Positions 1 through 12,182 of a DNA stretch of 13,867 nt are shown one piece after another. The stretch spans positions 1 to 13,867 of the forward strand of contig NW_021826041.1 in NCBI RefSeq assembly GCF_006345805.1, written 5' to 3'. This stretch comes from Octopus sinensis (taxonomy: Eukaryota). Numbering within the stretch: the stretch's first letter is position 1; each line of letters opens with the position of its first letter. Under the pieces are notes generated by a model, which did not search any database, was not told the origin of the DNA, and saw only the letters and a list, made by a program, of their open reading frames with translations. A program made the position numbers and the translations under genes.

Positions 1-695
1 ACAATGTGCAGACGACTCACTGGCTGGATCCTGAGGACATTCCGGACAAGAGACTGCGAGACCATGTTGACACTATGGAGGACATTTGTCCTAAGCCCGC
101 CACTACTGCTCCCAACTGTGGTCACCACATAGTGTCAAACTAACCACAGAGCTTGAGACAATCCAAAGACATTTCACCAAGATTATTCCACCATGAAAGA
201 AAAGAACTATTGGGAGAGGCTTAGGGAACTCAATTTGTACTCCTTGGAACGAAGACGAGAGAGATATGCAGTGATATACATATGGAAAATCCTGGAGGGA
301 CTAGCACCAAATTTTGGAATTGAGAGCTGTTCCAGTCCCCGTACAGGACGTCACTGTGTGGTGCAAAGTCCCGTCTTCCACATCCAGGGTAAGGAGCAGA
401 TACTGTAATAGCCTGGGGTTCAGGGGCCCTCAGCTGTTCAACAACTGCCAAGAAAACTAAGAGATCTACATGATGCGGATGTGGACATTTTCAAAAAACA
501 TCTAGACAAGCTGCTTTCCGGGATCCAGATGAACCCACTGCAAGGTACGAAGGTAACCTAAGGGCAGCAGCTACAAACTCTCTCTTAGATCAGTGGCCAG
601 CCACGGCAAACTGGACTTAGAGAGGGTAGCAACAAGAGCGGTGCCCCAGCATGGCCTCAGCCGGATGGCTGAAACAAGTAAAAGAGTAAAGAGTA
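1..695 (+). mobile_element. 3' end of a CR1-group non-LTR retrotransposon (ORF2 C-terminus, short 3' UTR, GTAAA(A)GA tail); runs off the left window edge
   Basis: Joining frames gives ..GWILRTFRTRDCETMLTLWRTFVLS/YCSQLWSPHSVKLTTELETIQRHFTK/MKEKNYWERLRELNLYSLERRRERYAVIYIWKILEGLAPNFG../SLGFRGPQLFN/LPRKLRDL..VDIFKKHLDKLLSGI/PDEPT..RAAATNSLLDQW..TAG(618-620). This is the typical post-RT region of CR1-like ORF2. About 5 frameshifts. A short-repeat tail follows, then (TA)n. Confidence 0.88.
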
Positions 696-822: not shown

Positions 823-1023
823 GCCTACTTGAAGTGCCATTAAAATATGAAACTGTTTGTGCATCAAACTGATATTTATCGCTCACTTGTTGATTTACCT
901 GTATTGGATCTATCTTTAAACTACATCTCCACACACACACACTCATAATCTTAAGAATATTATTTCTCTTACTCGCATTTTTCCATGAAATATATATACG
1001 TGTAAATATATATATATATATAT

Positions 1024-1469
1024 GGGTGGGAAGGGGCTGTTGACACAATCGTTTCATTCACAAATTGAATTCGGTGATACCAGTTGCGGATTCTAGCTCG
1101 CTCTGATACTGAGTTGAGTTGGTGCCTTCTGGTATCTCAAAATTCAATATATAATCATTTATGATTATAGTATTCTACGCTGAAGAGAAAAGAAGTTTCG
1201 GTAAGATAGAATTATTTAATATTTAATATTTAATTCTTATGCTTTCCTTAAAACTTGATTTCGAAACGTACGTCCGTGGATAACTAAAAAAAAAATGTAT
1301 GATAGATTGCAGTCAATTCATTCTCTCTTACCTGTTTGTGTCTGCCTTCCAAATGCTGTTTTTACTGAGATCTCCCTTTTTAGTAGAAGAAATAGCTATA
1401 ACCCTTTGACTGCTATTTCTAAATTCGGTATGTGGTAAGGCAACTCGTTGCTAAACCCTTATTGCTTAG
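1024..1469 (+). mobile_element. Hammerhead-containing, hairpin-rich non-coding cassette in (TA)n (Penelope-like LTR or retrozyme-like unit)
   Basis: Bounded by TA tracts on both sides, no ORF, contains the hammerhead at 1174-1280 and four further hairpins. The class assignment is inferred from the known association of type I hammerheads with Penelope-like elements and retrozymes. Confidence 0.6.
1174..1280 (+). ncRNA. Type I hammerhead ribozyme with elongated stem II
   Basis: Stem I TCTACG(1174-1179)/CGTGGA(1275-1280); core CTGAAGA(1180-1186); stem II 1187-1262 closed by G1187-C1262; GAAA(1263-1266); palindromic stem III ACGTACGT(1266-1273); GUC triplet with predicted cleavage after C1274. 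Confidence 0.8.
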
Positions 1470-1477
1470 TATATATA

Positions 1478-1525
<48 letters not shown>

Positions 1526-1529
<4 letters not shown>

Positions 1530-1726
1530 GACCTCGTGTGTACCGTTGGCGATTTTCTTCCTCTGTCTTCCCTTCTCTGATCTTTCTTTCCTTCTCCTAT
1601 GTTTCCGACGAAGAGCTCCGCTCGAAACGTTAAGCCCTCCTTCTTTCCTGAGCGTCCAATAATACTATATTTGTTCCACGTCCTCGCATTGTTGTGTTTT
1701 TTTTGTGCTTTCTTGTTTGGATTAAC
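1526..1726 (+). mobile_element. ~200-bp TA-flanked repeat with a variant minimal hammerhead (Penelope-like LTR-type family), copy 1
   Basis: Flanked by (TA)n. Collinear with the reverse complement of 13653-13867 through blocks TGTRACC, GTTGGCGATTT, TGTTTCCGANGAAGAG, GCTCGAAACGT, CTGAGCGTC, CCACGTCC and ATTRACTATA. Confidence 0.7.
1601..1635 (+). ncRNA. Minimal type I hammerhead-like motif, non-canonical core
   Basis: GTTT-CCGACGA-A-GAGC(TCC)GCTC-GAAA-CG-TT-AAGC. Stem I GTTT/AAGC, 4-bp stem II, ACGT mini stem III. Has a U4C change and an extra A relative to the consensus. Confidence 0.5.
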
Positions 1727-1745
1727 TATATATATATATATAAGT

Positions 1746-3792: not shown

Positions 3793-4000
3793 TTTTGGCT
3801 TAAGGCAAATTTGGCAGGAGGAGGAGGGGATAATCTACTATGTAGACCCCTGTACTTCACTCGTACTTTATTTTATCGACCCGAAAGGCTGAAAGGTAAA
3901 TGTTAACCTCGGCGGCATTTGAACTCAGAACATAGAGAGCTGATAGACATATTACTAAGCATTTTGTCTGGAATGCTAACGATTCTACCAGTTCGCCGCC
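3793..4000 (-). mobile_element. SINE family B, diverged near-full-length copy
   Basis: Reverse complement begins GGCGGCGAACTGGTAGAATCGTTAGCA, has a B-box GAGTTCAAATGCC and a central GAGGTTAAC..CCTTTCAGCCTTTCGGGTCGATAAAATAA. Matches 11714-11880. Confidence 0.85.
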
Positions 4001-4020
4001 TTATATTTGTCAATAACTAT

Positions 4021-4587
4021 TTTCCCACTATAGACACAATATCTGGAATTCGTGAGAGTTGGTCAGTCGATTACATCGACCCCAATCTTCAACTGGTACT
4101 TATTTTATCGACCTCGAAACGATTAAAATCAAAGTTGACTTCGACGGGATTTGAACTCAGCCTGTGAAGAGCCGGGATAAATATTATAGACACGAAGCCT
4201 GAAATTCGAGGGGGGTAGTCAGTTGATTACATCGACCCCAGTCTTCAAACGGTACTTATTTTGTCAACCACGAAACGATTAAAATCAAAGTTGACCTCGA
4301 CGAGATTTGAACTCAGCTTGTAAAGAACCGAGACATAAGTCGCAAGGCATTTTGTTCGACGATCCAACAATTCTTCCAAATTTCTAAGAGAGGGTTAGGA
4401 CTAGTTTTTTAAGGAGTTAGTCTGTTAATTCGACTCCAGTACTTGCCACGAACTTTATTTGTCGATCCTGGAAGGACAAAGGGCAAAGTTGATCCCGGCA
4501 GGATTTGAACTCAGGATGTAAAGAGATAAAACGTATATCTCGAAGCGTTTTACCCGATGTCATGAAGATTCTACCAAATTTCTAAGA
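4021..4587 (-). mobile_element. Three further head-to-tail SINE family B units (~4021-4180, ~4183-4377, ~4378-4575)
   Basis: Each unit has TCGACCCC/TCGACTCC, AAAGTTGA and GATTTGAACTCAG blocks in the same order. Confidence 0.85.
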
Positions 4588-6919: not shown

Positions 6920-7043
6920 ATCGGCCGGTTCGAAAAGATGAAAATCAAATCTAACCTCATCGGAATTTGAACTTACATCACACAGAGCCAGAACGAATAC
7001 CAGCAAACACCCACGCTCTAACGACTCGGCCAACTCTACGCTT
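6920..7043 (-). mobile_element. Highly diverged SINE family B 5' half
   Basis: CGAAAAGATGAAAATCAAATCTAACCTCATCGGAATTTGAACT and CTAACGACTCGGCCAACTC align with family B blocks. Confidence 0.6.
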
Positions 7044-8980: not shown

Positions 8981-9943
8981 CAGTAATACCTCACTTTACA
9001 AGACCCCGGGTTTACGAGTTTTATTTTATCATATTTCATGCGCAAAACCCAAATTTTGAATGAAGTGCAAACATTTCTACTCTTATAGCAAATGCTCCTG
9101 CAGGATACCGAGAAATTTACAGAGAGCGAAAAGGTTTCTTCTAAGCAAACAACGCTAGACTTGATTTTTAAAATGAGATCTGCAAGTCCGTCTACGAGTG
9201 CTTTTGCATCAGCGATCGCGTCTATAAGTGACGGTGTGCACGAGTCTAGTTCGAGTGAAAGTGATTCAGAAAACGATAACAATAATAATAATTTTAAATT
9301 ATAAATGATCTTGACATTCTTTTTGCTTTGCATAAAATATTCTTTACATTCTACTGTTGTTTTATTGCCATTTATTTACGAGTATTATCAATTTTATAGG
9401 TAAAATATTTTTCTGGGAACGAATTACAATTTATAACATTGCTACTATGGAAAAGTATCGCTCTGCTTTACGAGTATTCACTTTACGAGTGATCTCCGGG
9501 AACATATTAACTCGTATATCGAGTCATTACTCTTTTACTCTTTTACTTGTTTCAGTCATTTGATTGTGGCCATGCTGGAGCACCGCTTTTAGTCGAGCAA
9601 ATCGACCCCAGGACTTATTCTTTGTAAGCCTAGTACTTATTCTATCGGTCTCATTTGCCGAACCGCTAAGTTACGGGGACGTAAACACACCAGCATCGGT
9701 TGTCGAGCGATGTTGGGGGGCGGACAAACACAGATACACAAACATATACACACACGTACATATATATATACATATATACGACGGGCTTCTTTCAGTTTTC
9801 GTCTACCAAATCCACTCACAAAGCTTTGGTCGGCTCAAGGCTATAGTAGAAGACACCAGCCGAAAGTTCCACGCAGTGGGACTGAACCTGGAACCATGTG
9901 GTTGGTAAGCAAGCTGCTTACCACACAGCCTCTCCTACGCCTG
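8981..9943 (+). mobile_element. Internally deleted Tigger/pogo DNA transposon (body 8981-9530; last 2 nt displaced to 9942-9943 by a SINE)
   Basis: Left TIR CAGTAATACCTCACTTTACAAG (8981-9002). Right TIR CTCGTATATCGAGTCATTAC[SINE]TG followed by TA. C-terminal remnant NPNFE*SANISTLIANAPAGYREIYRERK/SKQTTLDLIFK plus an acidic tail, typical of Tigger transposases. Subterminal TTTACGAGT repeats. Confidence 0.82.
9527..9941 (-). mobile_element. SINE family A, full length (tRNA-derived head, internal microsatellite, LINE-type tail)
   Basis: Minus strand starts GGCGTAGGAGAGGCTGTGTGGTAAG, with an A-box-like motif at 9931-9921, a B-box GGTTCAGTCCC at 9888-9878 and a (GTAAAAGA)n tail. Confidence 0.92.
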
Positions 9944-11713: not shown

Positions 11714-12182
11714 GGCGGCGTGCTGGTAGAAACGTTAGCACGCCTGGAGAAATGCTTAGCAGTATTTCGTCTGCCGTTACGTTCTGAGTTCGAATTCCGC
11801 CGAGGTCGACTTTGCTTTTCATCCTTTCGGGATCGATAAATTAAGTTCCAATTACTCACTGGGGTCGATGTAATCGACTTAATCCCTTTGTCTGTCCTTG
11901 TTTGTTCCCTCTATGTTCAGCCCCTTGTGGCAATAAAGAAATAAGAAACGTTAGCACGCCGAGCGAAATACTTATCGCTACTTCGTCAGTTTTTACGTTC
12001 TGAGTTCAAATTCGACTTTGCTGTTCATCCTTTCAGAGACAATAAATCAAGGACCAGTTGCATACTGGGGTCGATCTAATCGACTGATCTCCCCCCCCCC
12101 CAATTTTTTTCTCCCCAAATAGAAAAGCTCTACATTGTAATTTGTCCCGTCTGAGTTCAGCCCTGTGTGACTAATAAAGAAA
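11714..12182 (+). mobile_element. Dimeric SINE family B (monomer 1 11714-11948; monomer 2 11944-12182)
   Basis: Head GGCGGCGTGCTGGTAGAAACGTTAGCACGCC, B-box GAGTTCGAATTCC (11786-11798). The central GAGGTCGACTTTGCTTTTCATCCTTTCGGGATCGATAAA resembles the Meta/MESC-type conserved SINE domain (from memory). Tail AATAAAGAAA. The second unit restarts at AGAAACGTTAGCACGCC. Confidence 0.88.

Follow-up and report, generated by a model that had tools for sequence, protein, structure and literature searches.

Near the start of contig NW_021826041.1 of Octopus sinensis (assembly GCF_006345805.1), some 445 nt tiled with hairpins surround a hammerhead ribozyme motif, which raises the question of whether this stretch is a retrozyme-like, potentially circular RNA unit or the solo long terminal repeat of a Penelope-like element (PLE). 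We addressed it in the window, i.e. the whole 13,867-nt stretch of forward-strand DNA that was analysed, and in the genome from which it comes. The two possibilities, both raised by the first-pass annotation, proved not to be exclusive: the element is ORF-less like a retrozyme and bears the insertion footprint of Penelope, yet no RT/GIY-YIG ORF was linked to it where this was tested. Reading the data jointly, we consider it likely that the 600-nt repeat to which the element belongs is a non-autonomous non-LTR retrozyme for which a PLE supplies the copying enzyme in trans, probably with a circular monomer RNA as the template.

Identity and structure of the element

At window positions 1024-1472 lies one copy, truncated at its 5' end, of a repeat that is 600 nt long, encodes no protein and contains a type I hammerhead motif. 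With one array period taken as the reference for unit coordinates (q1-600), alignment to the array unit shows that the window copy is devoid of q1-54 and of a 100-nt tail, q501-600. The 445-nt cassette that had been proposed as the unit is therefore q55-q500 of a longer tandem unit, and the element ends at 1472 instead of 1469. The reported lack of an ORF extends to the whole 600-nt unit, which has stops in all six frames; a tRNA scan of the unit found no tRNA gene. One of its frames had seemed to resemble the C-terminus of an endonuclease and was rejected, as no match was found. The features of the locus are as follows.

1006..1023, no strand: (TA)n target microsatellite on the 5' side, from the sequence
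1024..1472, plus strand: 5'-truncated monomer (unit q55-q500), 99.3% identical to the array unit, its 3' end being the main fixed end q500
1024..1057, plus strand: 5' strand of a predicted long-range rod that lengthens hammerhead stem I, its partner in the predicted fold being 1299-1335
1065..1147, plus strand: long hairpin (helices 8-9), z -5.5 (1060-1150), three pairs with two-sided changes
1150..1169, plus strand: short hairpin 5' of stem I, z -3.4 (1148-1172), two-sided changes at 3 of 6 pairs
1174..1280, plus strand: type I hammerhead, from the sequence by inspection; the MFE fold contains both stem I and stem II
1388..1420, plus strand: hairpin (helix 18), z -4.1 (1383-1425), conserved, no two-sided change
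1439..1452, plus strand: weak 3' hairpin (helix 21), z -1.7 (1436-1455), one-sided changes only
1470..1525, no strand: (TA)n target microsatellite on the 3' side, from the sequence, overlapping the element's terminal TAT

The hammerhead is composed of stem I (1174-1179/1275-1280), the core CUGAAGA (1180-1186), a stem II of 76 nt closed by a G-C pair (1187-1262), GAAA (1263-1266), an 8-nt palindromic helix III (1266-1273) and a GUC with a predicted cut after C1274. Its core is near-invariant in the family, with 9 of 7418 base calls differing at 13 core-region positions. Helix III has a calculated energy of +2.4 kcal/mol as a monomer hairpin and of -9.8 kcal/mol as a two-copy duplex, so that modelling favours a dimer-type architecture; such a helix III is described for metazoan type I hammerheads in the available text of PMC4209133. 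The folding energy of the hammerhead region (1165-1290) is not exceptional by itself (z only -1.5). Rfam returned no family at gathering score; with E allowed up to 5, the matches were TA-repeat noise only and included no hammerhead model, probably because of the long stem II. Holding one ribozyme only, the window copy cannot itself yield unit-length or circular RNA and is predicted to be a dead end. Besides, junction 1274/1275 is continuous in genomic copies, and divergent RT-PCR across it, which had been suggested as a check, would thus be no proof of a circle on its own.

Folding was compared with that of dinucleotide shuffles. The plus strand of 1024-1469 reaches a z-score of -4.14 and beats 100 of 100 shuffles, whereas the minus strand folds weakly (z -1.64, with 4 of 100 shuffles as good), which points to the plus strand as the folded RNA, in agreement with the first-pass annotation. 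All the stems named there are in place. For the GCAAC/GTTGC hairpin, the bases are present, but the loop as written would have 2 nt, and the fold uses a shifted 5-bp stem with the low local score listed above (local z-scores come from 200 shuffles per segment). In the full unit, the rod strand 1024-1057 continues into q30-54, absent from the window copy. Folded as a circle, the 600-mer has a predicted z of -6.2 on the ribozyme strand and of -3.7 on the other strand (25 shuffles); in this predicted fold stems I and II form, the ribozyme is able to form, and a long rod of q30-88 with q327-387 prolongs stem I. A further predicted helix, q452-461 with q530-539, would join the body to a part absent from the window copy, and several other helices of the full predicted fold likewise need missing parts.

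Covariation was assessed in an alignment of 18 subfamily representatives, with the structure taken from one member. There, 94.8% of cells are paired, and two-sided changes occur at 15 of 170 pairs, a count matched by 0 of 500 shuffles and set against 1-6 in slid controls, though the control ignores relatedness and some of the changes in stem II hinge on how the rows are aligned. The two-sided changes concentrate in stems I and II (helices 11-12) and in the hairpins at 1150-1169 and 1065-1147; the first of these hairpins (helix 10) is paired in 100% of cells and is predicted by RNAalifold, too. Rod helices 4-7 are paired in 86-95% of cells, with a two-sided change at one pair, and the 3' hairpins are conserved in the same 18 rows with no two-sided changes. 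Run on this gappy alignment, RNAalifold predicted 39 pairs only, with the hammerhead not among them.

Insertion footprint and template of copying

The 2.72-Gb genome contains many copies of 99-100% identity at 600-bp spacing, which rules out single-copy status; the 600-bp arrays and dispersed copies bear out the earlier proposal of a non-coding, multi-copy hammerhead element that is tandem elsewhere. About 3,000 hammerhead-motif copies are present genome-wide: a pattern search found 1,202 exact hammerhead 3' halves of the window's variant and 1,616 of related variants, and a looser pattern gave 3,174 matches as opposed to 199 with a control pattern. Identity between subfamilies ranges from 100% down to ~72%. 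Both tandem and head-to-head arrays occur, with a maximum of 19 units and with the hammerhead present unit by unit. In metagenomes, 38 pattern matches were obtained, none of them homologous beyond one 20-mer.

The insertions carry a Penelope footprint, consisting of (TA)n targets, 5' truncation and an inverted arm with a tail. Exact q476-500 ends followed by TATA occur at 459 sites and exact q603 ends followed by TA at 315 sites. From the first 100 of the q500 sites listed, we retained 95 loci; four that already belonged to the locus set were left out of the counts, and L162 was excluded before counting since its anchor was absent from the expected place. An inverted second arm lies on the 5' side in 48 of these 95 loci; it ends within q592-615 in 45 of the 48, mostly at q603 and q610, leaving a tail of ~100-110 nt. 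The family thus has 3' ends fixed at two places (q500 and about q603-610) and random 5' ends. Among 30 tail-anchored loci, 26 have a partner arm, three are single and one runs off the locus; compared with the 48/95 seen from q500, this marks q500 as the main end and the tail arm as optional. (TA)3 lies within 25 nt of the 5' end in 41 of 47 single-arm copies, and in 28 of the 48 pairs both arms stop no more than 25 nt from equal distance to q500. Most q500 arms (70/95) are no longer than one unit; 25 are longer. For comparison, PLE insertions are described, in the text of PMC8557442 available to us, as tandem or inverted copies with an optional tail of 30-40 bp and a microsatellite bias, and a PLE protein of anole, according to the accessible part of PMC11167929, extends both strands in vitro from two internal RNA sites that bound the tail. 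The octopus family, in short, acts like a non-autonomous PLE and not like an autonomous one.

Older subfamily insertions (L026 3370-3924 and L031 1587-2606; 77-85% identity) lie about 160 bp and 4 kb, respectively, from young ones and have the same two-armed, tailed layout, suggesting that the mechanism is old and stable. Two individual loci showed unusual variant patterns. At L127 (G000:C1:36727400-36731600), the outermost unit of each arm has a two-base variant in common that is absent from the inner units, a mirror pattern suggesting that one arm served as the template of the other, or that a single linear multimer gave rise to both. At L281 (G000:C12:62053300-62061500), a variable core position is G in 5/8 units of one arm and A in 3/3 of the other, a mosaic that could reflect RNA editing or an assembly error.

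These features would fit a copying cycle of five steps. Tandem arrays would be transcribed, and two neighbouring hammerheads in the transcript would pair via their palindromic helix III and cut at q305/306. The 600-nt monomer would then be closed to a circle, the ligase probably being of the host's RtcB type if other animal retrozymes are a guide. A Penelope RT/GIY-YIG protein would nick (TA)n DNA and prime reverse transcription inside the RNA at q500, often with additional priming on the other strand at about q603. The RT may run for part of a round or for many rounds, and would stop at structure, at a break or at a cleaved 5' end. Under this scheme, the cDNA that became the window copy would have been primed at q500, have read through the cut site and have ended at q55, w/o a second arm. 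The predicted cut is crossed by 47 of the 95 q500 arms, which together with the 25 arms exceeding one unit argues that the template is uncut or re-ligated there.

Cutting itself may have left a trace in the 5' ends. Among the arms at risk, 9 of 56 had their first-pass 5' end within q306-323, as opposed to 0/56 and 0/47 in the adjoining 18-nt bins; this bin was chosen with the cut site known, and its tract is A-rich and joins easily to (TA)n. A larger hotspot, q396-413, took 21 of 89 first-pass ends; it lies at a multi-hairpin junction and adjoins the 5' base of the 1388-1420 hairpin. Among newly collected tail-anchored loci, 3 of 19 ended at q306-316. At L400 the start of each arm is precisely q306, four other letters separating the two, and at L426 a multi-unit arm has exactly this start. 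A genome-wide junction pattern gave five junctions: in three, q306 is where both arms begin, and in the other two the arms overlap within the palindrome. Five matches are not clearly above a rough chance expectation of 1.5-3 (0.11 per 48 junctions, scaled to an estimated 650-1,200 two-armed insertions), and four of the five use self-complementary overlaps. The 5'-end pile-up after the predicted cut is hence only suggestive as a footprint of cutting. As to related systems, only one of nine tested Xenopus retrozyme dimers was cleaved in vitro in the available text of 10.64898/2026.07.22.740005, and the anole PLE inserted in vitro w/o hammerhead cleavage, with no reads ending at the cut in the part of PMC11167929 at hand.

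The arrays provide a second record. Across 160 units, substitutions between units amount to 1.6 within arrays versus 8.1 between arrays. Of the 58 arrays with at least 4 units, 48 are uniform outside homopolymer-prone sites; 22 haplotypes were found, in arrays of up to 19 units. In one array of 17 units, every unit that covers the sites concerned shows the same four A-to-G changes, on both arms where covered. Uniform array haplotypes are what repeated reading of one circle predicts, and circles as templates for more-than-unit reverse transcription are proposed in the accessible portions of PMC7229834 and PMC4209133. It is tempting, and to our mind possible rather than probable, to regard the young copies, which number in the hundreds, as a direct genomic record of the retrozyme life cycle, until now known as a proposal, with a Penelope enzyme priming at two fixed internal sites of one 600-nt circle, reading it up to some 19 times and at times running off at the cut. 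If this were true, the genome would provide evidence of in vivo cutting by a Penelope-associated hammerhead whose stem II has 76 nt, and of circles serving as the template in transposition, possibly once they had undergone A-to-I editing.

Private array-wide variants, which bear on such editing, number only 18 among 88 arrays. In the first set there were 13 A>G versus 3 T>C; in 53 further arrays, chosen by likeness to the queries and so biased against private variants and of little power, there were 0 A>G versus 2 T>C, and pooling gave 8 versus 4 (p 0.10). An apparent strand bias of single-unit variants was dropped after it had vanished in a larger set (53 A>N, 74 T>N). Among contigs from sequencing runs whose RNA origin is a guess, there is coverage of both the unit and its wrap joint; in two such runs (X1 and X16) the unit is covered, and the adjoining, normally more abundant pseudo-LTR (pLTR) little or not at all. 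A circle junction equals a tandem DNA junction, and no run is on record as RNA; we therefore did not count this coverage as evidence.

The template might instead be a linear, multimeric read-through transcript of an array, un- or partly cleaved, used by the same Penelope helper with no circles involved and with array homogeneity arising by descent. Homogeneous arrays can also stem from transcripts of already homogeneous arrays; many arrays do share an identical haplotype with others, and private array-wide variants are few. Besides, 10 of the 58 arrays are mosaic, one of them with two recombining haplotypes, which one circle read repeatedly does not explain. The tendency of paired arms to stop together would fit one linear RNA with a 5' end, the multi-unit arm of L426 points the same way, and unprocessed RNA was the main anole PLE substrate in vitro according to the available part of PMC11167929. 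However, most arrays are uniform throughout, and each of the 22 haplotypes would need its own monomer-to-multimer step; repeated multimer copying should moreover accumulate ordered, unit-specific variants, whereas the 17-unit array has its four changes in every covering unit. We thus rate the linear template as unlikely and keep the circular monomer as the preferred, probable source.

Search for a helper element

We infer a Penelope helper from the footprint only, and looked for it in the genome. PLE frames are common there: 149 of 150 scored GIY-YIG candidates matched, with open frames of up to 883 aa, and one intact-looking genomic frame carries both RT and GIY-YIG. The unit could also be the pseudo-LTR (3' repeat) of an autonomous PLE whose ORF-bearing copies lie outside our sample, the window copy being a solo pLTR. 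The insertion footprint is fully that of Penelope, and animal retrozymes are reported to derive from pLTRs in the portion of 10.64898/2026.07.22.740005 available to us. Yet the unit was absent as a 3' repeat from 30 loci of one PLE family and 20 of a second, where two matches were independent insertions; these 50 loci were drawn from 5,029 and 8,386 first-look candidates and cover, together with L024, three PLE families, the smaller part of PLE diversity. No PLE protein match, with 34 query peptides, lay within 2 kb upstream of any of the 47 single-arm copies, and loci L021-L070 had no adjoining ORF except a LINE-type frame and a PLE lying tail-to-tail. The proposed linkage of copies to RT/GIY-YIG ORFs, on which a reclassification as an ordinary Penelope LTR was to depend, was accordingly not seen at the single-arm copies or in L021-L070. 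When the unit was aligned locally with the 3' UTRs of three PLEs, shuffles scored as well; a short likeness to one of these UTRs was equalled by 269 of 500 shuffles. Pure 600-nt arrays of up to 19 units, running continuously across q600/q1, speak against a pLTR origin as well. Taken together, these results make a pLTR of an autonomous PLE quite improbable, and copying in trans stays our preferred reading.

Three PLE-related or LINE-related loci deserve mention in their own right. The 579-aa frame at L031 was rejected as a helper because it encodes a LINE-type RT, and the broken PLE at L024 because it lies tail-to-tail and has its own 3' end. A young PLE family (L078, L071-L100) has open frames of ~780 aa with RT and GIY-YIG and a minimal hammerhead-like motif of its own ~67 nt before its (TA)n end. 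By activity and target this family is a candidate helper, w/o sequence likeness to the unit.

It seems hardly credible that the repeat is a satellite, descended from an old ribozyme relic whose RNA structure is now irrelevant and amplified as DNA through extrachromosomal circles or unequal crossing-over: local DNA amplification would also give within-array homogeneity, and amplification after insertion is suggested by Li et al. 2026 in the available text of 10.64898/2026.07.22.740005, but the insertions, dispersed and in the hundreds, which share one fixed 3' end and have random 5' ends as well as another fixed end on the inverted arm, the predominance of q500 arms no longer than one unit, and the strand-specific folding, compensatory changes and near-invariant catalytic core all speak against it.

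Relation to known elements and neighbouring repeats

By its sequence, the family qualifies as a metazoan non-LTR retrozyme, having a type I hammerhead per unit, tandem and non-coding units, and dispersal w/o LTRs. At least two consecutive complete ribozymes stand head-to-tail in the family arrays; the window copy is a truncated monomer. The family is hence a further member of an already known kind, and the window copy itself an ordinary truncated insertion. In the accessible text of PMC7229834 and 10.64898/2026.07.22.740005, metazoan non-LTR retrozymes (of coral, mussel, axolotl and vertebrates) are likewise ORF-less tandem repeats of low GC with one type I hammerhead per unit, are found as dispersed monomers and multimers, have PLEs in the same genome, and are modelled as self-paired circles in which the ribozyme is free to form. 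Axolotl HHR_Amex1 has a similarly weak palindromic helix III in the part of PMC7229834 consulted, and the octopus unit size is within the 51-972 bp range given by Li et al. 2026 (10.64898/2026.07.22.740005, available text). The same partial sources mark the differences: the octopus unit has 600 nt as opposed to the 170-400 nt reported for invertebrate retrozymes, and its stem II 76 nt as opposed to about 4 bp; head-to-head arms with a 100-nt tail are absent from the metazoan retrozyme descriptions compared; and, unlike for retrozymes linked to pLTRs, no homologous pLTR was found in the 50 PLE loci and L024.

With PLEs and their pLTRs, the family has in common partial tandems, an inverted 5'-truncated arm and an optional tail between two fixed 3' ends (PMC8557442, PMC11167929, available parts), as well as AT-rich or microsatellite targets and a type I hammerhead with palindromic helix III (PMC8557442, PMC4209133, available parts). 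Non-autonomous Chlamys elements also occur in head-to-tail multicopy insertions in the accessible text of Craig et al. 2021 (PMC8557442). An autonomous PLE, however, has an ORF for RT and GIY-YIG, and the octopus unit has neither. In the PLE descriptions compared, which are partial, the tail measures 30-40 nt, in contrast to ~100-110 nt in octopus, and the hammerhead is minimal, in contrast to the full-length stem I and very long stem II seen here; arrays of up to 19 identical non-coding units also set the octopus family apart. Plant LTR retrozymes, compared by partial description, are alike in being non-autonomous and hammerhead-bearing and in their size class of 600-1000 nt circular RNA. They differ in a type III hammerhead within LTRs, a PBS, a PPT, 4-bp target duplications and a Gypsy helper, whereas the octopus family has a type I hammerhead, tandem units and a Penelope footprint.

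Our literature search found no paper on cephalopod retrozymes, and a term search of the main text of a 2026 Octopus vulgaris repeat annotation, as far as available, found no mention of ribozymes. With its two mapped priming sites, its array haplotypes and a candidate run-off site, this young family offers a ready substrate for testing how retrozymes are copied. It bears on the copying of animal retrozymes in general and on in vivo cutting by Penelope-associated hammerheads.

Several other repeats were seen in the genome and in the window. An unrelated dispersed repeat with a 21-nt near-palindrome (L409-L423; ~250 sites, often paired ~490 bp apart) swamped our first junction-pattern matches, which were set aside. 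Directly after the (TA)n, the window contains a separate pLTR-like repeat (1526-1730, plus strand) with a minimal hammerhead-like motif at ~1603-1635; an 89% copy of it lies in Penelope locus L102, downstream of an endonuclease frame, and ends related to it are frequent, lying ~95-110 nt beyond the motif. Positions 1-690 (plus strand) hold a broken fragment with a frame at 157-408 that has no Pfam match and is presumably similar to the C-terminus of a LINE ORF. A dispersed SINE-like repeat is present in two inverted copies at 1854-2172 and 9531-9852, with 84-96% complementarity, and the 3' motif of this repeat also ends the fragment at about 640-690. Diverged copies of a repeat of 56-150 nt, some of them 156 nt apart, are found at 3899-4540, 6947-7002 and 11777-12096, and contain what we take to be a tRNA B-box-like motif.
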